The translations under genes and the position numbers were made by a program. This document shows positions 9,019 to 54,593 of a stretch of DNA of 64,000 bases, one piece after another (within the stretch, counting starts at the first letter, position 1; each line of letters begins with the position of its first letter). The notes below the pieces were generated by a model. That model ran no database searches and had not been told where the DNA came from. It saw only the letters and a program-made list of their open reading frames with translations. Source of the stretch: Clostridia bacterium (GTDB lineage: Bacteria > Bacillota > Sulfobacillia > SLMV01); NCBI GenBank assembly GCA_003551215.1, contig PUMD01000133.1, forward strand, positions 2,494 to 66,493, read 5' to 3'.

Positions 9019-9071
9019 GATCAACGGAGAGTGAAGCTGCGCCGAACTACTCAACCAAGGAGGGAAGGATA

Positions 9072-24994: not shown

Positions 24995-25954
24995 ATGAGC
25001 AAAAAGATGTGGCGTCTTTTGAAAATAATGCATCTGGCAGCCGGCAATGAGAAACTCAAAGCTCCGGAGATGGCGGAGCGTCTGGGAGTATCGGTGCGAA
25101 CTTTTCACCGGGACAGACAACTGCTCGAGGAAGCGGGCCTGGGAGTAGTCTTCGACGGAGAAGGGTACTCTCTTGCCGGGGAGCCCTTTCTTCCCTCGGT
25201 GAAGCTGAGGCGTGACGAAGGCCTGGCGCTGATGCTCACTGTACAGAGTGTTTTGGATGCTGACTCGATCCCCTATTCAGAAAGCCTGCGCGGCGCTTTC
25301 GAGAAGATCGTATCCGGAATTCCTCCACACATGCGCAGAAACATAAGCAGACTGGGTCGCGAGATTCAAATAAGGCAGCAGCCCATGGTGAACATGTCAC
25401 CCTACCAGGAGGCTTTTGACGTGTTACGTGTTGCCATCGAAGAACAACAGGTTGTTCGCGCTGACTACATGGGACGTAGTGATGAGGAACCCCTCAGCAG
25501 AGAAATCGAGCCGTTGGGGATATTCCAAAGATGGCGCGCCTGGTACGTAGTAGCTCACTGTAGGCTGCGCGACGATCTGCGAGTATTCCGTATAGACCGC
25601 ATGTCGAATGTTTCTATGACCGAAGGGGAGTTTGTGCCCCGGAGGGATTTTGATCTCGATCGTTTCCTGCAGGAAGCCTGGCTCGTGGAACACGGAGATG
25701 TTCAGGAGGTGCGCATACGGTTCAGCGGAGAGGCCGCCCGGCTGGTAAGAGAGCTCACCTGGCATCCCTCGCAGCGGATAGAAGAGCATTCAGAAGATAG
25801 CCTGATTATGGTCTTCTGCACCGGAGGCAAAAGAGAGGTGGCTGACTGGGTCATGAGTTATGGTTCAAAAGCAGAAGTGCTAGAACCTCCCAGTCTTCGT
25901 TGCCTTGTGGCGCAAAAATCTGCCGAGATATCGTCCGTCTACAAGAGTGATTAA
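24995..25954 (+). CDS. WYL-domain transcriptional regulator (HTH-WYL-WCX, PafBC/YafY-like)
   Basis: N-terminal HTH (MAERLGVSVRTFHRDRQLLEEAG). WYL core (WYVVAHCRLRDDLRVFRIDRM). C-terminal WCX-like region. GGGAGGGGAG RBS. Lies 18 nt after rnhC. Confidence 0.7.
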   Translation: MSKKMWRLLKIMHLAAGNEKLKAPEMAERLGVSVRTFHRDRQLLEEAGLGVVFDGEGYSLAGEPFLPSVKLRRDEGLALMLTVQSVLDADSIPYSESLRGAFEKIVSGIPPHMRRNISRLGREIQIRQQPMVNMSPYQEAFDVLRVAIEEQQVVRADYMGRSDEEPLSREIEPLGIFQRWRAWYVVAHCRLRDDLRVFRIDRMSNVSMTEGEFVPRRDFDLDRFLQEAWLVEHGDVQEVRIRFSGEAARLVRELTWHPSQRIEEHSEDSLIMVFCTGGKREVADWVMSYGSKAEVLEPPSLRCLVAQKSAEISSVYKSD

Positions 25955-37309: not shown

Positions 37310-37348
37310 TTGATAAAATTATATGGTCTTCTTAGAATGTATATGGTC
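37310..37348 (+). promoter_or_regulatory. Candidate promoter of the hydrogenase structural operon, flanked by TATATGGTC direct repeats
   Basis: TTGATA (37310-15), a 17-nt spacer, then TAGAAT (37333-38). TATATGGTC at 37320-28 and 37340-48. Upstream imperfect palindrome GTGTTAAAG-N8-CGTTTTAAGCAC (37257-37286). Confidence 0.3.
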
Positions 37349-37484
37349 GTTGTTTGGTGTAAACGGTTGAGATGTATCGGTCGCCTGTTGGAGTTTGCGG
37401 CCTCTAGCATCGCGCCTTCAGCGACTCCGTATTGTCTTGTCGGCTATGATCTGAAGTTTCGATTTGGAAAGGGGTGCAAAGGTA

Positions 37485-38075
37485 GTGGACAAACAAGGCT
37501 TCGGAGGCCCCAGTGAAGATGGCGAAAGAACCGCTTGGTACGAGCGGCAGATCGACTGGGATGCCGTCGGGGATCGCCAGGAAAGTGCTGATTACGAAGA
37601 GGATATAGACTGGGATGCCGTCGAGGAGAAGGTGGACGAGATAATCAATGAATACGACGGAGATTCCGGCGCCCTGATCGAAGTGCTGCACGAAGTTCAG
37701 GAGCTGGTCGGGTATCTGCCGCAAAGGGTGCAGGTGCGGGTGGCTGACCGTCTCGGTCTATCGGTGAGTGAAGTCTACAGTGTGGTCACCTTTTACTCAC
37801 TGTTTTCTCTGAAACCCAAGGGCGAAAACCACATAACGGTATGCAAGGGTACCGCCTGTTACGTTCGCGGTGCAGCCCAGTTAATTGAAGAACTGGAAAA
37901 TCAACTGGGTATCTCTGTGGGCGATACCACAAGCGATGGAAAGTTTTCCCTGGAAGTGGTGAGGTGTCTGGGGGCGTGCGGGCTTGGTCCGGTAGCGATG
38001 GTTAACAACGAGGATGTTTTCGCGCGAATAACCGTCGATCAGGTTTCCGATATGCTGCAGCAGTACGAGGACTAG
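37485..38075 (+). CDS. hydC: NuoE-like [2Fe-2S] subunit of a multimeric [FeFe] hydrogenase (HydC/HndA-like), with an acidic N-terminal extension
   Basis: Thioredoxin-like 2Fe-2S motifs CKGTACYVRG...CLGACGLGP. N-terminus carries a duplicated IDWDAV segment. Start uncertain (GTG 37485 or TTG 37464). Confidence 0.7.
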   Translation: MDKQGFGGPSEDGERTAWYERQIDWDAVGDRQESADYEEDIDWDAVEEKVDEIINEYDGDSGALIEVLHEVQELVGYLPQRVQVRVADRLGLSVSEVYSVVTFYSLFSLKPKGENHITVCKGTACYVRGAAQLIEELENQLGISVGDTTSDGKFSLEVVRCLGACGLGPVAMVNNEDVFARITVDQVSDMLQQYED

Positions 38076-38085
38076 GCGGGCAATT

Positions 38086-38736
38086 ATGGAAGAGATATCG
38101 CTTCATGTGCTGGACATAGCAGAAAACTCCATAAATTCGGGAGCCACTGAACTGGCCATCACTATAGAGGAGCTGCCAGGTGACGGTCTGCTGTCGGTGA
38201 GTATCGCCGATGACGGGGGCGGTATCGCGTCCGATATGCTTCCAAAAGTGGCGGACCCTTTTACTACCAGTAGGACTACGCGAAAAGTCGGCCTGGGGCT
38301 GGCCTTTTTGCAGGAAGCCTGCTGTTCTGCTGGTGGCAACCTTCAGGTCCGTTCCGATTGCCGGGGTACCGTGGTTGCTGCTACCTTTCAGTACGGACAT
38401 ATTGACCGTCCTCCGCTCGGGGATATGGCCTCCACATTGGTGGTACTGGTGGCAACAAAGCCGGGCTTGCGGGTTTCGTATCGGCACGACGTGGGGGACA
38501 GAACGTTCGAGTTCGATACCAAGCAGCTGGACGAGTGGTTTGGCGACCTGGGCGAAAAACAGCAGCGCAGTCCGGTCGTGCTCCAGTGGCTGAGGCGGTA
38601 TCTTGAGGATAACTTGGAATCGCTGCGCGAGGGAGTACAGACGGATGTTCATAATCAAGGACACGCAGGCGACCAAGACCAAAGCCTGATCCGTCGGTCG
38701 CCGGCGGGGAGCATTGATCAACAACAGACTGACTGA
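38086..38736 (+). CDS. Histidine-kinase-like ATPase domain protein (HATPase_c only) embedded in the hydrogenase operon
   Basis: N box HVLDIAENSINSG. G boxes DDGGGI and GLGLAF. No HisKA/phospho-acceptor domain. Confidence 0.6.
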   Translation: MEEISLHVLDIAENSINSGATELAITIEELPGDGLLSVSIADDGGGIASDMLPKVADPFTTSRTTRKVGLGLAFLQEACCSAGGNLQVRSDCRGTVVAATFQYGHIDRPPLGDMASTLVVLVATKPGLRVSYRHDVGDRTFEFDTKQLDEWFGDLGEKQQRSPVVLQWLRRYLEDNLESLREGVQTDVHNQGHAGDQDQSLIRRSPAGSIDQQQTD

Positions 38737-41823: not shown

Positions 41824-41842
41824 ATGACCGGAGGTGAGTGCA

Positions 41843-43576
41843 GTGAGTGAAGTTTCTTTAACCATAAACGGACGTGACGTATCTGCGGCTCCCGGGACAA
41901 CGATTCTTGAGGCAGCCAAGCAGATCGATGTTGATATACCAACCCTGTGCTATCTCGAGGGGATCAACGAGATAGGCGCCTGCCGGGTCTGTGTTGTCGA
42001 ATGTGAGGGCAGCCTGCTGGCTGCCTGTACGACCCCGGTGACTGATGGAATGTCCGTGGTCACTAACAGTCCGAAGGTGAGAGCTGCCCGTCGAACCAAT
42101 GTTGAACTCATCCTCTCAGACCACGATGGCGACTGTCTATCCTGCAGCCGCAGCATGAACTGTGAGCTGCAGACCATTGCCCGCAACCTCGGAATTCGGG
42201 AAATCAGATATGAGGGAGAGATGTCCAGCCACCCTCGAGATGAGTCCAGTCCTTCACTGGTCCGGGATCCAGACAAATGCATTCTCTGTCAGCGGTGCTC
42301 AAGTGTCTGCAAGCAGGTTCAGGACGTGGAGGCCATCGATACCGTGGGACGCGGTTTTCAGATGCAGGTCGGTCCGGCCTTTGAGCAGACCATGGACGAG
42401 ATAGCCTGTGTCAATTGCGGTCAATGCATTCTCGTGTGCCCCACTGGTGCAATCACTGAGAAGGATTACAGAGAGGAAGTCTGGGGTGCTCTGAGCGACC
42501 CTGACAAACACGTAGTGGTTCAGACTGCTCCCGCTGTCCGGGTGTCCATTGGTGAAACTTTGGGCATGGAGCCTGGCAGTATTGTAACCGGACAGATGGT
42601 GGCCGGGCTGCGTCTTTTGGGCTTCGACAGGGTGTTTGACACTGATTTCGCAGCTGATCTGACTATAATGGAGGAAGGGAGCGAACTGCTGGCCCGCCTG
42701 AACGAAGGCGGTACGGTCCCGCTGCTGACCTCCTGTAGCCCCGGGTGGATAAAATACGTGGAGCATTTCTATCCGGAATTCACGGATCATCTCTCTACGT
42801 GCAAGTCTCCGCAGCAGATGTTCGGGGCACTGGCCAAGACTTTCTACGCGGAGAAGGCGGGAATCAAACCGGAAGATATTTTTGTGGTATCGGTAATGCC
42901 GTGCACCGCGAAGAAATTTGAGGCCCAGAGGCCGGAAATGGGAGCCAGCGGTTACGCCGACGTGGATGTCGTTCTGACCACCCGCGAGATGGGGCTGATG
43001 TTTTCGGAAGCCGGAGTAGACCTGAGACATCTCGAGGAGGAAGAGTTCGACGATCCTCTCGGGATATCAACTGGTGCCGCGGCTGTTTTCGGCGCTACCG
43101 GTGGCGTGATGGAAGCGGCTCTTCGCACGGTGTACGAGCTGGTTACCGGAGAGGAGCTTGAGGAGCTGGACTTTCACGATGTCCGTGGGTTGCAAGGAGT
43201 CAAGGAAGCCGAAGTTGATCTGCAGGGTACCACGGTTAAAGTGGCGGTGGCCCACGGCCTGAGCAAGGCACGCGGTGTCCTTGACGCCATTAAAGAAGGA
43301 AAAGCCGACTACACGTTTGTGGAAGTGATGTGCTGTCCGGGAGGTTGCATTGGCGGTGGCGGTCAGCCCCTACCCACGGATGACGAGATCAGACAGAAGC
43401 GGATCGACGCCATCTATCAGGTTGATAGAGACATGCCCCTGCGTAAATCGCACGAGAACCCGGCCGTGCAGGCTCTGTACGAGGAATATCTAGGTGAACC
43501 TCTCAGCGACAAGTCACATGAGCTTCTGCACACCGATTATTTGAGGCGCGAGGCGCACGCCGGGTATATCGGCTGA
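41843..43576 (+). CDS. hydA: [FeFe] hydrogenase catalytic subunit HydA (HndD-like), with an L1 motif variant
   Basis: N-terminal plant-type 2Fe-2S and 4Fe-4S ferredoxin domains. H-cluster motifs L1 TSCSPGW (canonical TSCCPxW), L2 MPCTAKKFE, L3 EVMCCPGGCIGGGGQP. GTG start after GGAGGTGA. Confidence 0.85.
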   Translation: MSEVSLTINGRDVSAAPGTTILEAAKQIDVDIPTLCYLEGINEIGACRVCVVECEGSLLAACTTPVTDGMSVVTNSPKVRAARRTNVELILSDHDGDCLSCSRSMNCELQTIARNLGIREIRYEGEMSSHPRDESSPSLVRDPDKCILCQRCSSVCKQVQDVEAIDTVGRGFQMQVGPAFEQTMDEIACVNCGQCILVCPTGAITEKDYREEVWGALSDPDKHVVVQTAPAVRVSIGETLGMEPGSIVTGQMVAGLRLLGFDRVFDTDFAADLTIMEEGSELLARLNEGGTVPLLTSCSPGWIKYVEHFYPEFTDHLSTCKSPQQMFGALAKTFYAEKAGIKPEDIFVVSVMPCTAKKFEAQRPEMGASGYADVDVVLTTREMGLMFSEAGVDLRHLEEEEFDDPLGISTGAAAVFGATGGVMEAALRTVYELVTGEELEELDFHDVRGLQGVKEAEVDLQGTTVKVAVAHGLSKARGVLDAIKEGKADYTFVEVMCCPGGCIGGGGQPLPTDDEIRQKRIDAIYQVDRDMPLRKSHENPAVQALYEEYLGEPLSDKSHELLHTDYLRREAHAGYIG

Positions 43577-43604: not shown

Positions 43605-43970
43605 ATGAAGATTGAGTCTCTGGATGATCTCCGCAAAGTCCGGGAGCAGGCCAAGGAAGGCATCAGCGTGCGGGAAGGCGGCGATGTCAAGATAGTAGTG
43701 GGCATGGGCACATGCGGCATCGCTGCTGGCGCGCGTGAGGTACTCTCGGCGGTACTGGAGGAGCTGGCGGAGAGAAACATTGTTGGAGTTGATGTTACAC
43801 AGACCGGTTGTGCTGGCTTGTGTGAACATGAACCCCTCCTTGAAGTCATCACCGAGGACCAGCCGCGCGTAGTGTACGGAAAGGTGACACCAGATCGGGC
43901 CAGGAAAATAGTGGTACAGCACCTGATCAATAGGCAGATAGTAGGTGAATGGGTACTCAAGAAGGATTGA
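43605..43970 (+). CDS. Stand-alone thioredoxin-like [2Fe-2S] ferredoxin (14-kDa HndB/HydD-like)
   Basis: GMGTCGIAAGAREV...TGCAGLCEHEPLLEV motifs. ATG 7 nt after GGAGGTGA. Confidence 0.65.
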   Translation: MKIESLDDLRKVREQAKEGISVREGGDVKIVVGMGTCGIAAGAREVLSAVLEELAERNIVGVDVTQTGCAGLCEHEPLLEVITEDQPRVVYGKVTPDRARKIVVQHLINRQIVGEWVLKKD

Positions 43971-44006
43971 GTTGGTTGTGCGAGAAGCCCATACGAGGGA
44001 ATCGTC

Positions 44007-44600
44007 GTGTCGGGCGGCGTAGCGATATTCTCGCTCCGGCACGACGATAGCCCTCCGATATCGCCCATTGTATATGCGGGGCTGGACCTTTTGTCCCGGG
44101 TGGTTGTCGGGCAATTCGATACGGAAGAAGGTGTCCTCTTGCAGCTGGAATATGAAGTAAAGGGGATGGATTTCCGGAATGCAGGCAAGGCTTCAACTAG
44201 AGTCCGGAAGAGGCTGCAGCAGCTGGGCCTCGACTCGACAACCCTCAGAAGCGTTGCGGTTATCTGTTATGAGGCGGAGATGAACATCGTAATACACGCC
44301 TATGAAGGACGCCTTATAGTGGATATAGATACGACCATGATCGAGATAACAGCCCGGGACCGGGGACCAGGGATTGAGGACATAGAACGTGCCATGCAGG
44401 ACGGGTTCTCTACGGCGCCCGAGCACGTGCGCGAAATGGGTTTCGGTGCGGGTATGGTCCTCACAAACATCAAGAGGCTGGCTAATTCCCTGCAGTTGGA
44501 ATCCACTGAGGGTGAGGGTACATGTTTGAAAGCGGTAGTCTACTACGGCTACCCACAGAAAGGTGGTGTTCAGTCGTGCCAGGGAAGTTTCACTCCGTGA
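44007..44600 (+). CDS. RsbW/SpoIIAB-type serine-protein kinase (anti-sigma-regulatory-factor-like HATPase)
   Basis: HATPase_c_2-like boxes (EAEMNIVIHA; ARDRGPGI; GFGAGM). GTG start after GAGGGA. Confidence 0.55.
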   Translation: MSGGVAIFSLRHDDSPPISPIVYAGLDLLSRVVVGQFDTEEGVLLQLEYEVKGMDFRNAGKASTRVRKRLQQLGLDSTTLRSVAVICYEAEMNIVIHAYEGRLIVDIDTTMIEITARDRGPGIEDIERAMQDGFSTAPEHVREMGFGAGMVLTNIKRLANSLQLESTEGEGTCLKAVVYYGYPQKGGVQSCQGSFTP

Positions 44601-46258
44601 AGCTGATAGAAGACGAGTGTGAGGGCTGTACCAACTGTATTCAAAATTGTCCTACCGAGGCCATTCGGGTACGGGACGGCAAAGCACAGATATTTGAGGA
44701 ACGTTGCATCGACTGCGGCGAATGCATAAGGCATTGCCCGAATCAGGTCAAGACGGCGGTTACGGATGATCTGAAGGCGCTCGGACGCTTTCAGTATAAC
44801 GTCGCTATACCAGCTCCCGCTTTTTTTGGGCAATTTGATCAGGGAGTAACGGCGGATGACATCCTCGCGGGTCTGCTTAACGTGGGCTTTGACGATGTGT
44901 TTGAGGTGGCAGTTGGTGCTGAAGCGGTAACCCTGGCGATTCGCCGATACATTGAAGGAGCCGCCTGCCGTTCACCGCTTATATCTTCGGCATGTCCGGC
45001 TATTGTACGCCTCATCCAGATCCGGTTCCCTGATCTGCTGGATCAGATAATACCCATTCACACTCCGATGGACATGGCTGCCAGACTGGCCAAAAGGAAA
45101 GTGGCCGATGAGCGAGATCTAGCCCTTGAGGATATAGGAGTGTTTTTTGTCAGTCCGTGCCCGGCGAAGGTCACCGCTGTCAAGGAACCGCTGGGAACCA
45201 GCGAGACAGATGTGGACGGGGCAATAGGTGTCGGCGAAATTTACGGCCAGGTGCGTTCCAAGACCGGGCGCGGCGAAGAGAAAAACCTGAGCAGAGCATC
45301 CGGTTTGGGGGCTCAATGGGGGTTTTCCGGTGGTGAAAATCAGGCCATCAACTCAGGAGTCCTTCTGGCGGTAGATGGGATTCAGAGTGCCATTTCAGTC
45401 CTGGACGGCGTGGAAAAAGGCGAGCTGCAGTCAGTAGATTACATTGAGTGTCAGGCCTGCATCGGTGGCTGCGTGGGTGGGGCTTTGATGGTTCAGAACC
45501 CGTTTTTGGCGCGCTCGCGGGTGGAGCGCATGGTGGAACAGATGGATCCGGGCAAAAGATACGAGCCTAGTGTGGACATGGCAGAAGCTACCCAGCTGTT
45601 TGACCGCGGGGAATTCGATCTTACCGAACCCATCCTCGCTCGCCCAGCCATGCGCCTGGATGAGGATGTCAACGTAGCTATGGACAAAATGGCCCGGTTG
45701 GATGAATTGAGCGAGGAACTGCCTGGTTACGATTGCGGTTCCTGTGGAGCTCCTACCTGTCGTGCCCTGGCTGAAGATATCGTTCAGGGGTTGTCAGTCC
45801 GAACCGACTGCATTTTTGAACTGCGAGAAGAGGTCTCTACCCTGGCTGAACAGATAAGCACAATTGTCCAGAGGCGCATGCCGATGATGAGCACCGAGGA
45901 GGAGCGGAAAGTGTTTGATGAGCTCACTCTCAGCCATGTTGCAGACGAGCTGGAGCTCTGGGCAGTGGCATTTGAAGATGTCCTGGACTCCCGTGTGATC
46001 CGAGGAGCTTACTGCTCAGACCTTCTCAGCGATGTAATGGCTAACGCTGGGGAGGGGAGCCTGTGGATTACCATTCAGACCCACCAGAATATTGTGGCGG
46101 TGGCCCTCATGGTTTCGCTTGGAGCCATAGTGGTCTGCGGAGGACGCGAACCCAGCCCGGGAACTGTGGTGAGGGCTGAAGAGGAGAACATCCCACTGCT
46201 GATTGCCGAGGATGATTCGTACACAGTGGCGGCCAAACTGCACAGCTTGACAATGTAG
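44576..46258 (+). CDS. hydS: Putative sensory [FeFe]-hydrogenase-like protein (HydS/HfsB-like) with a C-terminal Fe-S (CGxCGxxxC) and DRTGG-like domain
   Basis: Two 4Fe-4S ferredoxin motifs. H-cluster-like L1 SSACPAIV (proton-relay Cys replaced by Ala), L2 SPCPAKV, L3 ECQACIGGCVGG. C-terminal CGSCGAPTC and ...VCGGREP. Start uncertain (GTG 44576/44597 or ATG 44522). Confidence 0.65.
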   Translation: MPGKFHSVKLIEDECEGCTNCIQNCPTEAIRVRDGKAQIFEERCIDCGECIRHCPNQVKTAVTDDLKALGRFQYNVAIPAPAFFGQFDQGVTADDILAGLLNVGFDDVFEVAVGAEAVTLAIRRYIEGAACRSPLISSACPAIVRLIQIRFPDLLDQIIPIHTPMDMAARLAKRKVADERDLALEDIGVFFVSPCPAKVTAVKEPLGTSETDVDGAIGVGEIYGQVRSKTGRGEEKNLSRASGLGAQWGFSGGENQAINSGVLLAVDGIQSAISVLDGVEKGELQSVDYIECQACIGGCVGGALMVQNPFLARSRVERMVEQMDPGKRYEPSVDMAEATQLFDRGEFDLTEPILARPAMRLDEDVNVAMDKMARLDELSEELPGYDCGSCGAPTCRALAEDIVQGLSVRTDCIFELREEVSTLAEQISTIVQRRMPMMSTEEERKVFDELTLSHVADELELWAVAFEDVLDSRVIRGAYCSDLLSDVMANAGEGSLWITIQTHQNIVAVALMVSLGAIVVCGGREPSPGTVVRAEEENIPLLIAEDDSYTVAAKLHSLTM

Positions 46259-46282
46259 GGGTCGATAATCTTGCGGTCCTGG

Positions 46283-47017
46283 ATGGTGGATCTGCACATC
46301 CATACCGCCCTATCGCCGTGTGCCAGTGATGATATGACACCGGACAACATTGTGGCTGCTTCTCGAGAACGCAATCTCGACGTCATAGGAATAGCTGATC
46401 ATAATTCAGCGGCGAATGTGCGGGCGGTGGTGGCGGCTGCCGACAGCTTTGACCTGGTCGTGCTGCCTTGCTTGGAAGTTCAGACTTCCGAAGAGGTACA
46501 TGTGCTGTGCGTCTTCGATGATCTGGAGAGCGTTGCGGCATGGCAAGAGCATGTCTACCGGCACCTGCCAGATCGGGCCAATGATGAGGAGATTTTCGGG
46601 CGCCAGCATCTGTACGACGAATCGGGTATACTGTCGGGCAGCGAAAACCAGCTGCTATTGGTGAGCGCGGATTTGACCCTGGAATCAGTTTTTGAGGTGG
46701 TTTCGGTGCTGGGAGGGGTGTGTATTCCGGCCCATGTTGACCGTCGCAGCTTCGGACTTCTGGGAGTGTTGGGATTCGTCCCGGAGTCGTTGGACATATC
46801 AGCAGTCGAGGTGTCGCCCAATTTTCCGGGTGATGATGGTTTGAGCATACCGGACTCGGCCGCTACCGTACGTTTTTCTGATGCCCACACTCTGTCAGAT
46901 CTGGGGAACCAGTTTACAACTATGTGGATGGAAGCCCCGACTGTTGAGTGCCTGATGCAGGCCTTCAGGGGAGATGGAGGGAGAAGGGTCAAACCGCGGT
47001 TCGCCAGGGGGGATTAG
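46283..47017 (+). CDS. PHP-domain phosphoesterase
   Basis: HIHTALSP...ADHNS...PAHVDR His/Asp motifs of the polymerase and histidinol-phosphatase fold. Confidence 0.6.
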   Translation: MVDLHIHTALSPCASDDMTPDNIVAASRERNLDVIGIADHNSAANVRAVVAAADSFDLVVLPCLEVQTSEEVHVLCVFDDLESVAAWQEHVYRHLPDRANDEEIFGRQHLYDESGILSGSENQLLLVSADLTLESVFEVVSVLGGVCIPAHVDRRSFGLLGVLGFVPESLDISAVEVSPNFPGDDGLSIPDSAATVRFSDAHTLSDLGNQFTTMWMEAPTVECLMQAFRGDGGRRVKPRFARGD

Positions 47018-47043
47018 CAGCCCTACAGAAAGGAGGAGGTGAC

Positions 47044-49152
47044 GTGGCACAGCAGGTAGTTTACACGGTCTTGGATCAATGCCGTCGCTGTTATCACTGC
47101 GTGCGTGAATGCCCGGTGAAAGCGATAAAGGTGGAAGAAGGTCAGGCCTGGGTGATTGAGGAGCTGTGCATCTCATGCGGAACTTGTGTTAGAAACTGTC
47201 AGCTGCGGGCCAAGACTTACCTCAATGTGGTTCCAGAGTGTGAAAAAGAGCTGGGAGCCAGCCGTCACTCCGTGGCCATGCTTGCACCCTCCTTTGTTGC
47301 CTCATTTACCGAAGTGCAGCCCGGTCAGGTGGTAGCAGCCCTCAAGCGCCTGGGCTTCGATCAGGTGGTGGAAGTGGCCTATGGAGCCGAGTTGACGGCT
47401 TTGGCGTATGAGCAGTTTATCAATGAAGTCATGAACAACGGTGCGGGAGCAAATCAGAATGGCCACACGCAACGTCCACCGTTCCTCAGCAGCGCCTGTC
47501 CGGCGATAGTCAATCTGGCTCAGATTCACTACCCTCAGCTGCTGGAGCATCTGGTGCCGATTGTCTCTCCCATGGTTGCCCTGGCCCGTTTTCTTCGCTG
47601 GCGCGCCGACAGGAGCGAAGAGCCGCAGCCGTTTGTGGTGTTCGTGGGTCCCTGCGTGGCGAAAAAAAGCGAAGTTGACGACCCTAATCTGCGCGGTGAC
47701 GTCGATCTGGTTTTGACCTTCGCAGAACTCCGTCAGATGTGCGAGGAGAAAGATATTGATATCGAAGCGCTACAGCCGGCCGAATTCGACCCTCCCCATC
47801 CTTCGGTAGCCCGAATTTTTCCTCTTTCCGGGGGACTGTTGCGTTCGACGGGGGAACGTACGGATCTGATCAATCCTGATTTCGAAGTGGTTGAAGGTAA
47901 AAACGACGTGGTTGAGCTCTTTGATTCGTTGACCAATGGTGAGTCGGTAGACACCTCCCTGGTTGATATCCTGCTGTGTGAAGGATGCATTGCCGGTCCG
48001 GTGATAGACAGTGACTTGCCCTATATAAAACGACGCGAACAGGTGGTCAACTACACGCGTAGCACGGTAGGAAGCAGTGAACTGAGGCGTGGTAGTCCAC
48101 CGGAAAGCTGTTTTCCCTTGGAGCACCTTAGAAGGACTTTCGAGCCGCAGGCACAGCATCTTGCGGTCCCATCAGAGGAGGAAATACGTTCAATACTGCA
48201 ACGTGTGGGGAAGTCAGAGCCCGAAGATGAGCTGAACTGCGGGGCTTGTGGTTACGGTACCTGCCGGGATAAGGCGGTAGCTGTCCACCGGGGACTGGCA
48301 GAGGCGGAAATGTGCCTTCCTTATATGCTCGAGAAAATGCAGGAGACAGTAAAGCAGTTAGAAGAATCCTATGAAGAGCTGCATGAAATGTACCATGAGC
48401 TGCAGGAGACGCAGAAAGAGCTGGTGCAGGCGGAAAAGATGTCCTCCTTGGGGCAGATAGCGGCGGGAGTGGCCCATGAGATTAACAATCCGCTCAGCGG
48501 CATCCTCCTGCACGTCGACCAGGTAGAGCGGAACGATGACCAACACGTACAGACCATCAGGAAGGAAGCTGCCCGCTGCAAAGATATAGTTCAAAATCTG
48601 TTGAACTTCGCCAGACAATCAAGACTTCGAAAGCAGCCAGTCGGGTGGAATTCGTACGTGCAACAGGTGGTAGAGCAGTATCGAGGCCAGATGTCAAAGC
48701 AAGTGGAGGTTGAGCTCGACCTGCATGCCAGCGCCGACCGCCAGATACAGTTGGACCCCGAGCAGATGAAGAGGGTGCTGACAAACCTTCTGGACAATGC
48801 TGTGGATGCAGTGGATGAATCGGGCAGAGTGACAGTGGCAACTCACTATAATCAGTACACCAAGGAGGTCTCGGTGGTCGTCCAGGATGATGGTGAGGGC
48901 ATATCGGAAGAGAACCAACAGCGGTTGTTTACCCCATTTTTCACAACCAAAGAGCCAGGTAAGGGAACTGGTCTGGGGCTGCCTATGGCCCATGGCATTG
49001 TGAAGATGCACCGGGGTGATATTGAAATTGACTCTGAGGTGGGAGCGGGCACAGAGGTCAAGGTAACGCTGCCTAGGGACACTGAGGGAGCTGCGGCAAT
49101 CGTCGGCGCAGGTGAACCACGCAAGGAAGGTTCATCCGACGTAATTTCGTAA
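47044..49152 (+). CDS. Sensory [FeFe]-hydrogenase-like domain fused to a histidine kinase (HisKA plus HATPase_c)
   Basis: Two CxxCxxC ferredoxin motifs. L1 SSACPAIV, L2 GPCVAKKSE, L3 CEGCIAGP. Then H box AHEINNPLSG and G boxes (DDGEGI; GTGLGLPMAHGIV). GTG start after GGAGGAGGTGA. Confidence 0.7.
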   Translation: MAQQVVYTVLDQCRRCYHCVRECPVKAIKVEEGQAWVIEELCISCGTCVRNCQLRAKTYLNVVPECEKELGASRHSVAMLAPSFVASFTEVQPGQVVAALKRLGFDQVVEVAYGAELTALAYEQFINEVMNNGAGANQNGHTQRPPFLSSACPAIVNLAQIHYPQLLEHLVPIVSPMVALARFLRWRADRSEEPQPFVVFVGPCVAKKSEVDDPNLRGDVDLVLTFAELRQMCEEKDIDIEALQPAEFDPPHPSVARIFPLSGGLLRSTGERTDLINPDFEVVEGKNDVVELFDSLTNGESVDTSLVDILLCEGCIAGPVIDSDLPYIKRREQVVNYTRSTVGSSELRRGSPPESCFPLEHLRRTFEPQAQHLAVPSEEEIRSILQRVGKSEPEDELNCGACGYGTCRDKAVAVHRGLAEAEMCLPYMLEKMQETVKQLEESYEELHEMYHELQETQKELVQAEKMSSLGQIAAGVAHEINNPLSGILLHVDQVERNDDQHVQTIRKEAARCKDIVQNLLNFARQSRLRKQPVGWNSYVQQVVEQYRGQMSKQVEVELDLHASADRQIQLDPEQMKRVLTNLLDNAVDAVDESGRVTVATHYNQYTKEVSVVVQDDGEGISEENQQRLFTPFFTTKEPGKGTGLGLPMAHGIVKMHRGDIEIDSEVGAGTEVKVTLPRDTEGAAAIVGAGEPRKEGSSDVIS

Positions 49153-49342
49153 ACAGCCTGCGGTGGGCAGTTGTGTTATTCTGCGGTTACGTATTTTGGA
49201 CGCTGTTGGTAGGTTTGGAGATTTCCTGAGCTGGTCAGAGACATTCTGGCAGTGAGGGGTAGTTTTCAGTACAACATACCTCCTGAGTCGAGGGTGGTGC
49301 AAAGGACACCTGAACCACAGGGAGGCACCATGCATACCAAGG

Positions 49343-49374
49343 GCCTACCTGTGTTTCTGCATGGGTAGGCTTTT
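49343..49374 (+). terminator. Rho-independent terminator, about 190 nt downstream of the hydrogenase-kinase fusion gene
   Basis: GCCTACC, a 13-nt loop, GGTAGGC, then TTTTT. Confidence 0.5.
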
Positions 49375-49458
49375 TACGTCAATCGCCGGTGTTGCCAGTC
49401 AACTAAGACAACGTGACGAGAGCGAGTGAGCAAAGGCTTCGGGAATGGGAGGCAAACC

Positions 49459-49737
49459 ATGGATCAAAGGATTGGCGTGGTGGGGATCGTGATAGAAGAC
49501 CGAGAGTGCATCGCACCTGAGGTTAACCGAATACTGAGCCAGTTTGGGGATGTTATCGTCGGCAGAATTGGGGTGCCGCGTCCGGACCATGACTTGGCGG
49601 TGATCGCGCTTATCGTACAGGGCACTGCAGATCAGATGGGAGCTCTTACTGGTCGGTTGGGGAATCTACCTTCGGTTCAAGTGAAGTCCGGAATGACCTC
49701 AAAGAGAGTGAAGACAGACGGGGAGGGATGCAGGTGA
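49459..49737 (+). CDS. Small ACT-like putative iron-only-hydrogenase system regulator (TM1266-like)
   Basis: About 92 aa, MDQRIGVVGIVIEDRE... Typical size and position immediately upstream of hydG. RBS GGGAGG. Confidence 0.5.
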   Translation: MDQRIGVVGIVIEDRECIAPEVNRILSQFGDVIVGRIGVPRPDHDLAVIALIVQGTADQMGALTGRLGNLPSVQVKSGMTSKRVKTDGEGCR

Positions 49738-51137
49738 AGCAGCTGCAGGAGGTGATTTCGGAGGAGAGAATATTCAATGTGCTTTCGGATGCTGCCGGAT
49801 CCAGCCGGCAGGAAGCCGGACGCATCATAGACAAGGGCCGCAACCTACAAGGTCTGAGCCCCAAAGAGGCGGCAGTTCTGCTGACCATCGACGAAGAGGA
49901 TCTGCGGCAGCTATTGCTGCAGGCAGCTCGAGAGGTAAAGGAACAGATTTACGGAAAGCGGCTGGTGATCTTCGCTCCGCTTTATCTGGATAATATCTGC
50001 CATAACAGCTGTCTTTACTGCGGTTTCCGAAAAGAGAACCAGAAAATAGAACGACGGCGGTTGTCGATGGAGGAAATAAAAAAAGAAGTCTCTGCTTTGC
50101 AGAAGGAAGGACACAAGCGGCTGTTGATTCTTACCGGCGAGAAGCGGGATGCGGATCTGGACTATCTGCTGGATGGAATAGCTGCTGCATACCAGGTGCA
50201 GACCAAAAAGGGAGGACAGACTCGCAGGATCAACGTCGAGGTCGCTCCCATGACCGACAAAGAGTTTGAGTCTCTTGCGGAAGCGAATATAGGTACGTAT
50301 ACCTGTTTTCAAGAGACCTACCACCGCCCCACCTATAAGAGAATGCACCCGCGAGGGCGGAAGGCAGATTTCGACTGGCGTCTGACGGTTATGGATCGCG
50401 CTCAGCGTGCTGGTATAGACGATGTGGGTATCGGAGCGCTTTTTGGTCTTTATGATTACCGCTATGAGGTGGTGGCAATGCTCCTGCACGCTCAGTATTT
50501 GAGTGAAACCTACGGAGTCGGACCGCACACTGTATCTGTCCCGCGGTTGCAGCCCGCTGCCGAGGCACCGATACGCAAGTCCCCTTACCCGATTTCCGAT
50601 GAGGATTTCAAGAAATTGGTCGCCGTGCTCCGATTGGCTATCCCTTATACCGGGATAATCCTGAGCACCCGGGAACCGGTTTCCCTGCGTAATCAGCTAT
50701 TTATGCACGGTGTTTCTCAGATCAGCGTCGGCTCCCGGACTGCCCCCGGTGCCTACCAGCAAGACGAGCAGGGCTGCGGCAAGCGAGCGCAGTTTACTCT
50801 GCACGATAGTCGTCCTATGTCCGAAGTGGTGGCTGAAGTCGCCAAGGCCAACTATATTCCCAGTTTTTGCACTGCCTGCTACAGAGAAGGGAGAACCGGT
50901 GAGGCTTTCATGGATCTGGCCATACCGGGCAAGATTAGCAACTACTGCAAGCCGAATGCCATGTTGACCTTCAAGGAATATCTCACGAACTATGCCGATG
51001 AAGTGACCACAAAGGCAGGAGAGGCCTGTCTCAACCACCATCTGCGGGAAATCAAGAGCGGAGATAAACAGCTAGCCCAATGGATTGAGCGGGCCTTCGA
51101 CCGCATGCAACGGGGGGAACGCGACATTTACCTGTAG
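49728..51137 (+). CDS. hydG: [FeFe] hydrogenase maturase HydG (radical SAM tyrosine lyase)
   Basis: Radical-SAM CHNSCLYCGF. C-terminal auxiliary cluster motif C-x2-C-x22-C (FCTACYREG...ISNYC). 469 aa. Confidence 0.85.
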   Translation: MQVKQLQEVISEERIFNVLSDAAGSSRQEAGRIIDKGRNLQGLSPKEAAVLLTIDEEDLRQLLLQAAREVKEQIYGKRLVIFAPLYLDNICHNSCLYCGFRKENQKIERRRLSMEEIKKEVSALQKEGHKRLLILTGEKRDADLDYLLDGIAAAYQVQTKKGGQTRRINVEVAPMTDKEFESLAEANIGTYTCFQETYHRPTYKRMHPRGRKADFDWRLTVMDRAQRAGIDDVGIGALFGLYDYRYEVVAMLLHAQYLSETYGVGPHTVSVPRLQPAAEAPIRKSPYPISDEDFKKLVAVLRLAIPYTGIILSTREPVSLRNQLFMHGVSQISVGSRTAPGAYQQDEQGCGKRAQFTLHDSRPMSEVVAEVAKANYIPSFCTACYREGRTGEAFMDLAIPGKISNYCKPNAMLTFKEYLTNYADEVTTKAGEACLNHHLREIKSGDKQLAQWIERAFDRMQRGERDIYL

Positions 51138-51140
51138 GAG

Positions 51141-52445
51141 GTGATCGCCATTCAGAAAACACCGAGAGCAACTCGTCCACATATAGCAGTTTTCGGCAGG
51201 CGCAATGTTGGTAAATCCACCTTGGTCAACGCGCTGGCAAACCAAAACGTAGCAGTGGTTTCGTCGGTACCGGGTACCACAACTGATCCGGTTTACAAAT
51301 CAATGGAACTTCACCCGTTCGGACCGGTTGTGCTGATTGATACTGCCGGAATAGATGATGCGGGCGACCTGGGGGAAGTACGGGTGAACCGCACCAGGCG
51401 TGTGCTTCGCCGGACCGATCTGGCTTTATTGGTGGTCGATCCGCGGCAGGGAATCGGCGAGTGGGAAACGGACTTTCTGTCAGAGGTTAACCGCGATAAA
51501 GTTTCTGTGCTGGCAGTCATAAACAAAATTGATCGAGCGGAAAGAAAGGATCTAAGAGGTATCCGGCGAGAAGTCAGAAACGGGCTGGATCTCCCGGTAG
51601 TCCGGGTCAGTGCCGAGCAGCATAGGGGCATTGATGCACTGCGGGATGAGATAGTGGCCCATCTTCCCCGCAGGGCGAAGGCAGATACCATCGCTGCGGA
51701 CCTTGTATCGGAGGGGAATCTGTGCCTGCTGGTCACTCATATCGATGAGGCTGCTCCCCAGGGCCGGCTGATTTTACCTCAGGTGCAGACGCTGCGCGAT
51801 CTGTTGGACCATGGCTGTCCTGCGCTGGTGACGAAAGAAAGCGAACTACCTCTGGCCCTCAGCAGATTATCGTCGCCGCCGGGTCTGGTTATATGTGATT
51901 CGCAGGTGTTTCCCCGGGTACAGGAGTGCTTGCCGGGGGATGTTTCATTGACCAGCTTCTCCATTTTATTTGCGCGACTTAAAGGGGATTTTCAATTCTA
52001 CCTGCGGAGCCTGCAACAGTTGGAGAGACTTGCCCCCCAAACGAGGATCATCGTAGCCGAGGCATGTACGCATAGGGTTACGCACGAGGATATAGGGCGC
52101 GTCAAGATCCCGCGCATGTTGTGCAGCCGATACCCCGATCGAGCATTTATATTTGATTACTGCTCCGGCAGCGATTTTCCCGATGACCTCGATCCCTACG
52201 ATCTAATGTTGCACTGCGGCGGGTGCATGTTGAATCGCACAGAAGTTCTGTCGCGTCTCGGCGAAGCCCAGGAGGCCTCACTTCCAGTAATAAACTATGG
52301 TATGCTCCTCGCCTACCTCAACGGTATCCTTGGACGAGCCCTTCAACCGATACTGGGCAAACAACCTGCTTATCAATATTGTGGCATCGGGGATGATGTG
52401 CGCGTTGGTGACGATGCAAGGCGAGGTGAAGATGATGTCAGTTAG
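51141..52445 (+). CDS. hydF: [FeFe] hydrogenase maturation GTPase HydF
   Basis: GRRNVGKSTL (G1), DTAG (G3), NKID (G4). C-terminal CxH...HCGGC cluster motif. Start codon uncertain (GTG 51141 abuts the GGAGG). Confidence 0.8.
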   Translation: MIAIQKTPRATRPHIAVFGRRNVGKSTLVNALANQNVAVVSSVPGTTTDPVYKSMELHPFGPVVLIDTAGIDDAGDLGEVRVNRTRRVLRRTDLALLVVDPRQGIGEWETDFLSEVNRDKVSVLAVINKIDRAERKDLRGIRREVRNGLDLPVVRVSAEQHRGIDALRDEIVAHLPRRAKADTIAADLVSEGNLCLLVTHIDEAAPQGRLILPQVQTLRDLLDHGCPALVTKESELPLALSRLSSPPGLVICDSQVFPRVQECLPGDVSLTSFSILFARLKGDFQFYLRSLQQLERLAPQTRIIVAEACTHRVTHEDIGRVKIPRMLCSRYPDRAFIFDYCSGSDFPDDLDPYDLMLHCGGCMLNRTEVLSRLGEAQEASLPVINYGMLLAYLNGILGRALQPILGKQPAYQYCGIGDDVRVGDDARRGEDDVS

Positions 52446-53526
52446 TGAGACAGCATACAGTCACGAGTATATCCACAACATCTTAAAACGGGCACACTGC
52501 CAGGGCCCGGAACTATCCGTAGGGGAGATCGAGGCGCTGCTCAGCATAGGTCATCCCGACGGGCTCGAATCTCTCTACGCTATTGCTGATAAGGTTCGGA
52601 AAGATACGGCAGGTGATGGGATTCACCTGCGAGGACTGATAGAGTTTTCCAATTACTGTCGCAGAAATTGCCTGTACTGCGGGCTGCGCAGGGCTAACCG
52701 TCGTCTGACCCGGTATCGGATGGATCAAACAGAGGTTTTGGGAGTTGTGCAGGCCATGGCGGAGCGGGGTATAAAGACCGTGGTATTGCAGTCGGGGGAA
52801 GATCCGCACTTCACACAGGCGCGGATGGTTTCCCTCGTTGAAAAGATAAAATCGCGTTTTGATATAGCCATTACCCTGAGTGTGGGTATACGATCTCAAA
52901 AGGATCTGATCGCTTTCCGGGCGGCGGGTGCTGACCGCTATCTACTGCGCCATGAAACTGCAAACCGCCAGCTATACTCTCAGCTGCACCCAGATTCCCG
53001 ACTCGGCGACCGAGTAGAAATGCTGCATGCGCTCAGCGAATTGGGATATGATATCGGCACTGGACCCATGGTGGGGCTTCCCGGACAGACTTACCGAGAT
53101 CTGGCCTTGGATATTGATCTGGCCCGACGACTCAAAGCCGATATGTTTGGCGTTGGTCCGTTCATCCCTCATCCGGATACTCCCCTGAGTGAGGCACAGG
53201 AGGGTACAGCAGAGGACACTTTCAAGATGATTGCGCTGGCACGTATAGTTTTAAGGGAGGTTCACATACCTGTGACTACCGCCCTGACCACCCTGGATGC
53301 CGAGGCCCGGGAGAAGGGATGGAACAGAGGGGCAAACGTAGTTATGCCGAACGGCACGCCAGCTCCTTATCGCGAGCAGTATGAATTATATAAGGATAAG
53401 AGATGCCTGCAGGATTCGCTGAAGCGATGTGCGGTTTGTCTGCAGATGCGGGTTCAGTCCGTTTCACGCCATATCAGCTCAGGTTATGGTGATTCCCTGC
53501 GCAGTGACAGACAGAGGTCTTCCTGA
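52432..53526 (+). CDS. hydE: [FeFe] hydrogenase maturase HydE (radical SAM)
   Basis: CRRNCLYCGLRRAN radical-SAM motif, about 364 aa. ATGATG start after GGCGAGGTGAAG, overlapping the hydF stop. Confidence 0.8.
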   Translation: MMSVSETAYSHEYIHNILKRAHCQGPELSVGEIEALLSIGHPDGLESLYAIADKVRKDTAGDGIHLRGLIEFSNYCRRNCLYCGLRRANRRLTRYRMDQTEVLGVVQAMAERGIKTVVLQSGEDPHFTQARMVSLVEKIKSRFDIAITLSVGIRSQKDLIAFRAAGADRYLLRHETANRQLYSQLHPDSRLGDRVEMLHALSELGYDIGTGPMVGLPGQTYRDLALDIDLARRLKADMFGVGPFIPHPDTPLSEAQEGTAEDTFKMIALARIVLREVHIPVTTALTTLDAEAREKGWNRGANVVMPNGTPAPYREQYELYKDKRCLQDSLKRCAVCLQMRVQSVSRHISSGYGDSLRSDRQRSS

Positions 53527-53596: not shown

Positions 53597-53631
53597 CAAG
53601 ATTGAGTTGCAAGATTGAGACATAGTATAAT
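53597..53631 (+). promoter_or_regulatory. Promoter-like region with tandem CAAGATTGAG repeats upstream of the stand-alone receiver gene
   Basis: CAAGATTGAG at 53597 and 53610 (13-nt period), further GATTG copies upstream, -10 TATAAT at 53626. Confidence 0.3.
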
Positions 53632-53749: not shown

Positions 53750-54154
53750 ATGACAGAAGGAAAGACTGTTCTCCTGATTGATGATGATGCCGATTTCGTA
53801 GACTTGAACAAAAAGGCTCTGGAGGATGCTGGTTACGAAGTGGAGACTGCTTATGATGGAGAAGAGGGCATGCAGAAAGCCAAAGATATCAAGCCGGATG
53901 CAATAGTCCTTGACGTTATGATGACTACCTCCACAGAAGGGTTTGAAGTGGCGCGGGATATGCGCAATGATCCCAAGACCAAGCACACCCCGATCATCAT
54001 GCTTACGTCCATAAATGCACCTGAGCACGGGCTGCCCCGTGCCCTCGGAGAGTATGACAAGGACGAGACTTGGAACCCGGTGGACGTATTCCTCAACAAG
54101 CCAGTGTCTCCTGAGGAGCTGCTAGAAAAGATAGAAGATGCCCTCAAACGGTAG
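53750..54154 (+). CDS. Stand-alone response-regulator receiver (CheY-like)
   Basis: LLIDDD, D in IVLDVMM, TPIIMLTS, NKP motifs. 134 aa with no output domain. Confidence 0.75.
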   Translation: MTEGKTVLLIDDDADFVDLNKKALEDAGYEVETAYDGEEGMQKAKDIKPDAIVLDVMMTTSTEGFEVARDMRNDPKTKHTPIIMLTSINAPEHGLPRALGEYDKDETWNPVDVFLNKPVSPEELLEKIEDALKR

Positions 54155-54169
54155 CATCTGACAGAACTG

Positions 54170-54432
54170 ACTTGGCGTCGCACAGACTCAGCAGACGATG
54201 ACGCAGGCTTTGCGGGAGTAAAGAGGAGAGCACCTGGGGCATCCGGTAATGAGGTCTCGAGTATGAGCAGTCTGACGATATCCAGCTGGATTTGATGATG
54301 GCGCACAGTGATGCAGGTTTCCACTATGCATGCGAGATCAAATCCCGAAATCAGGAAGTACCGGTGATGATGTTGACCGGAGCCGCATTGAACACGCAAC
54401 ATGGGGTCAGGCTTTTTAGATGCTGGCGAGCC
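54170..54432 (+). pseudogene. Frameshifted, degenerate remnant of a second receiver domain
   Basis: One frame reads ..DDDAGFAG... A +1 frame reads YEQSDDIQLDLMMAHSDAGFHYACEIKSRNQEVPVMMLTGAAL, matching the PDLILLDLMMPG...PIIMLTA receiver signature. No intact ORF. Confidence 0.45.
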
Positions 54433-54544
54433 AGGGATGGATAGCAGTGGCGCTTATTCGAAGACCCTCATTTCCAGGAGCGTCCTGCTGGAGACGTCCG
54501 ACGCTTGCTGGATCAGGCCTATGAGCGGTGCGACTTAGTGCTGT

Positions 54545-54574
54545 GGAGACCGGGTGGAATTCCACCCGGTCTCC
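54545..54574. repeat. Perfect 30-nt palindrome 20 nt upstream of the hybrid kinase gene
   Basis: GGAGACCGGGTGGAA|TTCCACCCGGTCTCC, exact reverse complement over 15+15 nt. Confidence 0.6.
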
Positions 54575-54593
54575 GTGTTAGAGGGGCGATAAT

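Follow-up and report, generated by a model that had tools for sequence, protein, structure and literature searches.

Biochemical study of putative sensory [FeFe] hydrogenases has been confined to TmHydS and TamHydS. TamHydS represents group D (M2e), which is characterized by two N-terminal [4Fe-4S] motifs, a C-terminal four-Cys motif, absence of PAS, loss of Cys299, and replacement of Met353 by Ser or Thr (Land et al., PMC8163306). It catalyzes slow, reversible H+/H2 interconversion, has properties resembling those of regulatory [NiFe] hydrogenases, and has a genomic neighbourhood that includes a trimeric hydrogenase together with a histidine-kinase-like ATPase (PMC8163306). TmHydS and RaHydS are PAS-containing proteins of group C (M2f); HydDB describes class C1 as 'histidine kinase-linked' and C3 as 'phosphatase-linked' (PMC5037454). 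A 2024 survey noted HATPase-containing C1 genes beside A3 hydrogenases and doubted their H-cluster motifs, a 2024 Cell paper termed groups B and D functionally undefined, and a 2026 paper on TamHydS stated that group D signal transduction is unexplained. Here we address signalling downstream of putative sensory [FeFe] hydrogenases, using a 64-kb stretch of Clostridia bacterium DNA (contig PUMD01000133.1; hereafter the window) in which two such proteins of different type adjoin genes for a HydABC-type hydrogenase and its HydEFG maturases.

Among described systems, hfsABCD of Thermoanaerobacterium saccharolyticum/T. thermosaccharolyticum likewise clusters a sensory-type hydrogenase gene with regulatory genes. 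It encodes HfsA (role unclear), the PAS-type HydS HfsB, the serine phosphatase homologue HfsC, and the catalytic ferredoxin-linked HfsD (PMC11837493), and its genetics point to regulation of fermentation (PMC5707799). The original prediction, made from the DNA sequence, described 43605–49737 as an hfs-like cassette. That label does not hold, as the set of RsbW-like ATPase, M2e::DRTGG protein, PHP protein, and kinase fusion matches no hfsABCD member: HfsB carries a PAS domain, HfsC is a serine phosphatase homologue rather than a PHP protein, HfsD is a catalytic hydrogenase rather than a kinase fusion, and hfsABCD contains no DRTGG gene, RsbW-like gene (as defined here), or two-component kinase. 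In Ralstonia eutropha, the H2-sensing hydrogenase HoxBC controls the histidine kinase HoxJ and the response regulator HoxA, which govern hydrogenase genes (PMC5707799).

We find that 43605–49737 is a junction, made up of a displaced ferredoxin gene, a group D (M2e) cassette, a kinase-fused sensor, and a TM1266-family gene heading the maturase operon. The six genes are consecutive, as had been predicted, but they are not a single unit, since the stretch joins four conserved units. The locus is probably a mosaic around one HydABC-type [FeFe] hydrogenase that joins two independent, widely conserved putative H2-sensing modules, here termed module 1 (group D) and module 2 (kinase-fused). Here, known parts are combined in an unusual way, and they do not amount to a new type of system.

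Results

Two putative sensors of different clades

Translated open reading frames (ORFs) were scanned with Pfam and NCBIfam profiles, scores were compared with the family cut-offs, and start codons were picked by ribosome-binding-site context and homologue N-termini (for the HydS family, a conserved YFHSV). Between 37.4 and 56.1 kb, the genes in the ORF listing all lie on the + strand without a break, and the six ORFs of 43605–49737 within this run are all intact. Each domain that had been assigned to them was reproduced, with E-values that exclude chance. H-domains are present in both hydrogenase-like proteins (Fe_hyd_lg_C, 2.3e-33 in the HydS-like protein and 6.6e-51 in the fused sensor), and the kinase-fused ORF is unsplit, being continuous and 100% identical to a public 702-aa protein (P0001). 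The two proteins share only 29% identity. Both carry the predicted SSACP variant of L1, in which the proton-relay Cys is lost (PLISSACPAIV in the HydS-like protein, PFLSSACPAIV in the fused sensor), and both contain the C-terminal Fe-S domain, of the form Cx2Cx4Cx16C (DCGSCGAPTC and NCGACGYGTC, respectively, each followed by the fourth Cys after 16 residues). A neighbour-joining tree of H-domains resolved three clades (A, C, and D), with the window HydA in clade A, one sensor in the group D/M2e clade and the other in clade C. Thus, the claim of two different sensory architectures beside hydrogenase and maturase genes is upheld. The pairing is uncommon, though the window is not its only case: L003, L004, L013, and L063 (about 4 of 82 sampled group D loci) each contain both a clade C and a group D sensor, with differing clade C outputs. 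In two of these, H-domain/Fe-S modules are fused directly to sigma54 enhancer-binding domains (L063 12996–15278 and L004 18010–20619); such proteins would be one-component H2-responsive activators.

Group D sensor and its conserved cassette

The HydS-like protein starts at a GTG (44576), and its N-terminus, MVPGKFHSV, agrees with the family's YFHSV. Besides the H-domain, Pfam detects Fer4x2, PF04060 (8.8e-12), and the predicted DRTGG-like domain (2.6e-6; 27.7 bits against a cut-off of 25.2). A custom DRTGG hidden Markov model (HMM) places the last at residues about 467–580 of the stop-to-stop ORF 44516–46255 (7e-51), and it is of the DRTGG2 type (WITIQTHxN). No PAS family was matched in Pfam at E<=0.01. 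Alignment with the window HydA and homologues gives VSPCPAK as L2 and ECQACIGGC as L3. The family motifs in alignment A2 are PLISSACPA, F[IF][ST]PCPAKVT, and QAC[VI]GGC, and the Cys residues of SSACP, SPCPAK, and QACIGGC are conserved throughout. In the tree, the protein is 39–49% identical to other clade D members and groups with PAS-less homologues of 440–460 aa from Thermoanaerobacterales, Moorellales, and others. As judged from its sequence, it displays all the listed M2e/group D features. TamHydS of Thermoanaerobacter mathranii (PMC8163306, PMC13104023) shares its two N-terminal [4Fe-4S] motifs, H-domain, Cx2Cx4Cx16C motif, lost Cys299, Ser in place of Met353, and lack of PAS, and its gene likewise neighbours those of a trimeric group A hydrogenase and a histidine-kinase-like ATPase. 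Compared with TamHydS by its published description, the window protein differs in the fused C-terminal DRTGG domain, in its position downstream rather than upstream of hydABC, and in carrying Gln rather than the reported Leu for Met497.

A genome-collection scan with the group D HydS (HydS(D)) alignment yielded 80 loci of more than 554 relatives, which together with L003 and L004 make a set of 82, and locus ORFs were labelled with the window's own proteins. L2 reads TPCPAK, SPCPAK, TPCAAK, or SPCAAK in 72 of the 82. Nearly all share one gene order: RsbW-like ATPase, HydS(D), PHP, NuoE, GHKL ATPase, small ferredoxin, NuoF, HydA. The DRTGG HMM further revealed two paralogous DRTGG genes in 70 of the 82, DRTGG1 lying 5' of the ATPase and DRTGG2 between HydS and PHP. 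The canonical group D cassette is therefore DRTGG1, kinase, HydS, DRTGG2, and PHP, usually directly upstream of hydC. The window cassette is ATPase, HydS::DRTGG, and PHP. Fusion of DRTGG2 to HydS is confined to 2 of the 82 loci, plus the window and its nearest homologues (P0121–P0131), and the DRTGG HMM detected no DRTGG1 gene in the 64-kb window.

The RsbW-like ATPase has a TTG start and retains the N-box (EAEMNIVIHA), G1 (DRGPGI), and G2 (GFGAGM). An orthologue lies 5' of HydS(D) in almost all of the 84 labelled loci carrying one. TIGR01925 scores 57.7 bits (1.2e-15), below its cut-off of 135, and the best solved relative is SpoIIAB (1th8, 2.6e-7), so the protein is predicted to belong with RsbW/SpoIIAB at the superfamily level only. 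Module 1 recalls the RsbW/RsbV/RsbU and SpoIIAB/SpoIIAA/SpoIIE modules in combining a small HATPase_c_2-type GHKL ATPase, small accessory proteins, and a phosphoesterase, and the sensor had accordingly been called partner-switch-linked. This is an analogy only. Neither a STAS antagonist nor a PP2C phosphatase occurs among the genes called at 37.4–57.5 kb, where the gaps contain no plausible ORFs, and no sigma factor lies beside the ATPase in the module. DRTGG and PHP occupy the STAS and PP2C positions but are not homologous to them. With STAS and PP2C absent and a PHP fold unlike protein phosphatases, module 1 would resemble a partner switch in outline only.

The PHP protein, a stand-alone predicted phosphoesterase, is 100% identical to a public 244-aa protein (P0241); an alternative TTG start lies at 46271. 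Its gene is found 3' of HydS or DRTGG2 in most loci. The Pfam score falls below the cut-off (22.8 against 26.4) and a PDB sequence search reached only E 0.08. The AlphaFold2 (AF2) model is confident (pLDDT, predicted local distance difference test, 95.2). Its best Foldseek match is EndoQ (5zb8; E 9e-12, template-modelling (TM) score 0.68), followed by BAD_1165 (a putative pAp-type phosphoesterase), RNase AM, and polymerase PHP domains. At E<=0.001 there are 25 PDB matches, every one a PHP-fold enzyme or PHP domain; histidinol phosphatase matches only marginally, and protein tyrosine phosphatases are absent from the PDB matches. The protein shares with EndoQ, RNase AM, and BAD_1165 the PHP barrel and the full metal-binding His/Asp/Glu set (invariant D3, H5, H7, D39, H40, E65, H73, H151, D200, and H202), and yet is only 16–20% identical to them. 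It has no counterpart of the C-terminal half of EndoQ (the alignment takes in the 244-aa model but just about two-thirds of the 398–400-residue chain, with a TM score of 0.43 on the target), and its context is hydrogenase regulation, unlike the DNA repair context of EndoQ. A role as a protein phosphatase analogous to PP2C is not supported by the fold search, in which the closest matches are enzymes of the EndoQ, RNase AM, and pAp-phosphatase type.

Kinase-fused sensor and its receiver pair

The fused sensor starts at a GTG after AAAGGAGGAGGTGA. It consists of two [4Fe-4S] motifs, the H-domain, the Cx2Cx4Cx16C domain, a long helix, HisKA (His478), and HATPase (Pfam: Fer4x2, PF04060 3.2e-9, HisKA 2.1e-12, and HATPase_c 9.6e-27). 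Cys152, Cys204, Cys312, and Cys315, invariant in the family, are retained in alignment A3, in which the kinase boxes AHEINNPL, NLLDNA, DDGEGI, FTPFFTTK, and GTGLGL are also invariant. L2 is FVGPCVAKK and L3 is LLCEGCIAGP. The L3 spacing is Cx2C, one residue shorter than the Cx3C of clades A and D. We considered whether this is a defect and rejected the idea, because Cx2C is invariant in the kinase-fused family and common to PAS-type clade C members, and is therefore a clade trait rather than a lesion.

Within clade C the protein is 33–52% identical to its neighbours, which are fused to PAS-histidine kinase, PAS-sigma54, or sigma54 domains without PAS. In the H-domain tree it clusters with PAS-containing sensors, and it shares with TmHydS the C-terminal four-Cys domain and, as reported for that protein, Gly at the Met353 position. 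In contrast to TmHydS and RaHydS, it has no Pfam match to PAS: between Cys424 and His478 there are about 50 residues predicted to form a single helix, leading from the Fe-S domain to HisKA. We therefore file it as a PAS-less relative within clade C, not as M2f. In the monomer model (pLDDT 69), one helix spans residues 425–494, from just past the last cluster Cys (424) through His478. A continuous helix between these points would fit a model in which the C-terminal cluster domain acts mechanically and directly on the kinase core.

The predicted cassette also omitted two genes that lie beyond it. In L002, L085, L086, L088, L165, L166, and L169, a sensor kinase of this type is followed by a receiver (~130–165 aa) and a receiver-(PAS)-HisKA-HATPase hybrid (~505 aa). 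This trio usually stands immediately 3' of hydC-hydB-hydA, and the loci represent seven or more unrelated contigs. In a metagenome scan with the sensor-kinase alignment, the back-translated FxPFFTTK caught generic histidine kinases, and only L085–L088 were informative. In the window, the receiver at 53750–54154 is 70% identical to the receiver directly 3' of the sensor kinase in L169, and the hybrid at 54594–56114 is 58–63% identical to the hybrids 3' of the receiver in L002, L165, and L169. These two proteins are the predicted conserved partners of the fused sensor kinase. The phospho-acceptor and catalytic residues of kinase and receivers are intact, and TM1266-hydG-hydF-hydE are inserted between the sensor kinase and its receiver pair. 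A 440-nt gap without a plausible ORF (54155–54593) separates receiver and hybrid, which abut or overlap in relatives. In L166 (10001–18139), two clade C sensors occur in tandem, a PAS-less histidine kinase trio followed by a PAS-histidine kinase with a sigma54 regulator.

HoxBC-HoxJ-HoxA serves as a working analogy for module 2. It differs in its unrelated [NiFe] metal centre and proteins and in having sensor and kinase on separate polypeptides; moreover, HoxA is a DNA-binding activator, whereas the window locus encodes no DNA-binding output.

Mosaic origin

The window flanks (upstream ComEA, DUF401, and RecD2; downstream Aminotran_4, ComEC, and holA) match L002 and L165, which carry hydCBA and module 2 only. 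By contrast, the window HydA and HydB are 65–70% identical to those of L003 and L063, the module 1-linked type, versus 53–54% to those of L002. The closest relatives, L167/L168 (HydA 78–80%), share with the window the order HydA, ferredoxin, RsbW-like ATPase, HydS::DRTGG, PHP, and contain neither the sensor kinase, nor a single receiver, nor maturases. As the module types are separate in the closest relatives, the window is a union of the two.

In L167 (3964–5511) and L168 (4160–4918), two independent assemblies, the orthologous receiver-PAS-kinase hybrid is no longer a single ORF, its sequence being spread over four or more reading frames. This breakage is consistent with decay after loss of the upstream sensor.

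Hydrogenase operon, maturase operon, and surroundings

The features are listed in Table 1.

Table 1. Genes and signals of the hydrogenase locus, in window coordinates
Feature	Position	Strand	Basis
HydC, NuoE-like thioredoxin-like [2Fe-2S] subunit	37464..38075	+	Pfam 2Fe-2S_thioredx 1.9e-51
Stand-alone GHKL ATPase, without HisKA	38086..38736	+	Pfam HATPase_c 1.3e-12; HATP_D in synteny table
HydB, NuoF-like flavoprotein fused to GltD-like NAD(P)H/FAD domain, 1022 aa	38755..41823	+	Complex1_51K 4.7e-48, NADH_4Fe-4S, Fer4_20, Pyr_redox_2 1.8e-37
HydA, catalytic group A [FeFe] hydrogenase	41834..43576	+	Fe_hyd_lg_C 1.8e-99 and Fe_hyd_SSU
Thioredoxin-like [2Fe-2S] ferredoxin, 121 aa	43605..43970	+	Match to N-terminal [2Fe-2S] domain of NfnB 9n5u_B, 6e-24
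RsbW/SpoIIAB-like GHKL ATPase, 153 aa	44139..44600	+	HATPase_c_2 6.8e-9, 36.2 bits (cut-off 27.4)
Putative sensory [FeFe] hydrogenase of group D (M2e type), DRTGG2-type domain fused C-terminally, 560 aa	44576..46258	+	Pfam, family motifs, neighbour-joining tree
Stand-alone PHP-fold metal-dependent phosphoesterase (predicted), 244 aa	46283..47017	+	AF2 model, Foldseek, invariant residues
Clade C putative H2 sensor fused to class I histidine kinase, PAS-less, 702 aa	47044..49152	+	Pfam, neighbour-joining tree
Hairpin GGCCTACC...GGTAGGC then TTTTT, GC-rich	49343..49377	+	Read from sequence; in minimum-free-energy fold
TM1266-family ACT-like putative regulator, first maturase-operon gene	49459..49737	+	PF21699 1.7e-28; TIGR03959 98.1 bits (cut-off 60.8)
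HydG, radical SAM and BATS maturase	49728..51137	+	Pfam
HydF, GTPase scaffold maturase	51141..52445	+	HydF_dimer 9.8e-36, HydF_tetramer 3.1e-39
HydE, radical SAM maturase	52432..53526	+	Pfam; ATG at 52432 after GAGGTGA; orthologues labelled HydE
Single-domain response regulator, 134 aa	53750..54154	+	Response_reg 3.2e-19
Hybrid receiver-PAS-HisKA-HATPase kinase, 506 aa	54594..56114	+	Pfam

HydA scores 920 bits against NCBIfam FeFe_hydrog_A6 (cut-off 765), and in the PDB it best matches the HydA1 chains found in 7q4v and 8a6t. Its motifs are TSCSPGW in L1 (about residue 297–303), MPCTAKK in L2, and MCCPGGCIGGGGQP in L3. The Ser of TSCSPGW aligns with CpI Cys300, which we take to be a ligand of [4Fe-4S]H. 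Loss of function was nevertheless rejected, as 48 of 51 HydA proteins of related loci have TSCSPGW, making it usual for the subtype, and the solved HydA1 chain of 7q4v has it too. The NuoF::GltD-like fusion of HydB recurs in L003, L007, L010, L011, L013, L017, L042, L047, and L063; its GltD-like Fer4_20 and Pyr_redox_2 module suggests that this HydABC variant is NADP(H)-linked or Nfn-like. HydC has a 56-residue acidic N-terminal extension (37464–37630) with a duplicated IDWDAV motif; the domain begins at residue 57, and the start codon is uncertain.

The position of the GHKL ATPase between hydC and the small ferredoxin is kept in nearly all related loci. The 14-kDa window ferredoxin, which starts at an ATG after GGAGGTGA and scores below the Pfam cut-off (22.3 against 24.8), had been counted as part of the signalling cassette. 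Its orthologues (38–58% identity) sit inside the hydrogenase operon, between the GHKL ATPase and NuoF (HydB), in about 55 loci, and a ferredoxin 3' of HydA is found only in the window and L167/L168. Rather than a signalling gene, it is thus predicted to be an accessory hydrogenase-operon gene that has moved from its usual place.

Nor does the TM1266 gene belong to the cassette as proposed: it overlaps hydG by 10 nt, lies 306 nt from the sensor gene, and adjoins hydE/F/G in L003 and L063. It heads the hydG-hydF-hydE maturase operon. The 306-nt non-coding spacer (49153–49458) contains the hairpin, ~85 nt 5' of the TM1266 start; this hairpin may terminate the hydC-to-sensor unit or act as an attenuator ahead of TM1266. 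The spacer folds only marginally better than shuffled sequences (z -1.67), and an Rfam search of 36–57 kb at E<=0.1 found no match. The two best promoter-like sites, each matching at 10 of 12 positions, lie before hydC (37310–37338) and before the receiver gene (53602–53631). These operon-structure signals are not statistically compelling. A search for the Rex operator (TTGTKAANNNNTTMACAA, <=2 mismatches) gave one site, at 36430, which is at chance level (23 of 100 shuffles) and not beside the sensors; Rex control is not supported.

The hydrogenase and maturase surroundings are chromosomal, with genes for a GGDEF protein, McsB-ClpC, IspDF, CysS, ThyX, a sigma-70-family protein, RecD2, ComEA/ComEC, and holA in the window (noted at 5376–6524 on the - strand and 7948–11669 on the + strand). 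Ordinary Bacillota chromosome genes across the rest of the window thus confirm a non-mobile context. Two adjacent large ORFs of 407 and 630 aa (20433–21656 and 21669–23561, both on the - strand) have no Pfam match and no PADLOC match; they adjoin a WYL/WCX regulator gene (24995–25954) and the gene for an N-terminally extended RNase HII-like protein, and GC skew drops there.

Discussion

If both modules sense H2, they would do so by different routes. In module 1, the HydS H-cluster, with its proton-relay Cys lost and Ser for Met353 as in TamHydS, would report H2, and the HydS state would pass via the C-terminal [4Fe-4S] domain to the DRTGG domain. The change in DRTGG could alter how it binds the GHKL ATPase, or how that ATPase modifies it using ATP; the PHP enzyme might reset the system through phosphoester hydrolysis. 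Since the PHP fold resembles EndoQ, RNase AM, and pAp-phosphatase-type enzymes, the enzyme may act on a nucleotide and not on a phosphoprotein, and from the structural model a nucleotide or phosphoester signal appears at least as likely as protein phosphorylation. In module 2, a change in H2 or redox state at the H-cluster and C-terminal cluster would travel down the one continuous helix (Cys424–His478) and so set autophosphorylation of the sensor kinase. Phosphate would then flow to the receiver and the hybrid kinase, which would relay it to an output.

Several observations weigh against the picture of two H2-sensing modules. Clade C proteins have Cx2C rather than Cx3C in L3, and H-cluster binding by this subfamily is a prediction from sequence; in the sensor monomer model, helix 452–481 has pLDDT below 50, and no DNA-binding output is encoded in the locus. 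In module 1, the partners of a classical switch are missing, the PHP fold is not that of a PP2C-like protein phosphatase, and the lack of DRTGG1 means that the module may work otherwise here or be impaired. The promoter and terminator consensus scans behind the operon boundaries are not enriched over shuffles, and experiments on members of either module are limited to spectroscopy of TamHydS and TmHydS.

Part of the same evidence bears on alternative explanations. The one that survives best, albeit unlikely, is that both H-domain proteins respond not to H2 but to the cellular redox state, through the pool of reduced ferredoxin or of NAD(P)H. Both keep ferredoxin-like N-terminal domains, and the slow, reversible H+/H2 interconversion of TamHydS implies that its clusters equilibrate with H2 and the redox pool. 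The cassette is also accompanied by CBS and DRTGG domains, which in other protein families go with adenine-nucleotide-binding regulators. However, all four H-cluster Cys residues and the adjacent maturases are kept, which a pure Fe-S redox sensor would not need, and the resemblance of TamHydS to regulatory [NiFe] hydrogenases likewise speaks for H2.

It is more doubtful still that HydS(D), perhaps together with the kinase-fused protein, belongs to HydABC as an additional subunit or a slow catalytic module, with the GHKL, DRTGG, and PHP proteins as assembly or maintenance factors. The co-linearity of the cassette with hydC-hydA in most loci, the retained catalytic activity of TamHydS, and a PHP fold that is not protein-phosphatase-like would all fit, and one survey treats some group C3 proteins as the 'T subunit' of Bfu-type complexes (PMC11406978). 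Against this, one protein is fused to a complete histidine kinase and other clade members to PAS-histidine kinases or sigma54 activators, covalent fusions that are sensible only for signalling. In addition, the proton-relay Cys is absent from both proteins, and the PDB search with the HydA family, read at the level of its best-matching chains, returned HydA chains of HydABC entries. Very improbable is the last alternative, in which one module is a decaying remnant of mosaic-forming recombination and the organism has a single functional sensor: the absence of DRTGG1, the 4.6 kb of maturase genes between sensor kinase and receivers, the non-coding gap ahead of the hybrid kinase, and the frameshifted hybrid of L167, a sister locus that lacks the sensor kinase and shows that such decay does occur in the lineage, are outweighed by window ORFs that are all intact, every family-invariant catalytic and cluster residue kept, and good ribosome-binding-site and start contexts.

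Beyond the two-module mosaic itself, a more far-reaching proposal can be made, to which we give limited credence. DRTGG1, the GHKL ATPase, HydS(D), DRTGG2, and PHP may constitute an undescribed signalling device of group D [FeFe] hydrogenases, in which DRTGG would be the direct output partner of the H2 sensor, with the HydS::DRTGG fusion of the window and its subclade as a 'Rosetta stone', and PHP would act on a nucleotide or phosphoester signal instead of a phosphoprotein. This device and the clade C phosphorelay might converge on one, possibly NADP(H)-linked, HydABC and provide two-tier H2 control.

For the sensory [FeFe] hydrogenases as a family, the first lead is a conserved five-gene context for group D sensors, in which the occasional HydS::DRTGG fusions indicate the DRTGG domain as the immediate partner of the sensor; a full-text literature search for DRTGG together with hydrogenase returned nothing relevant. 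The second is a defined, putative three-protein phosphorelay for PAS-less kinase-fused sensors. The window adds a natural case in which both modules flank one hydrogenase, with parts that are of known classes and a combination that recurs elsewhere. The value of the locus is as a source of hypotheses: that DRTGG may be the partner of group D sensors, and that the receiver pair may serve the PAS-less kinase sensors.

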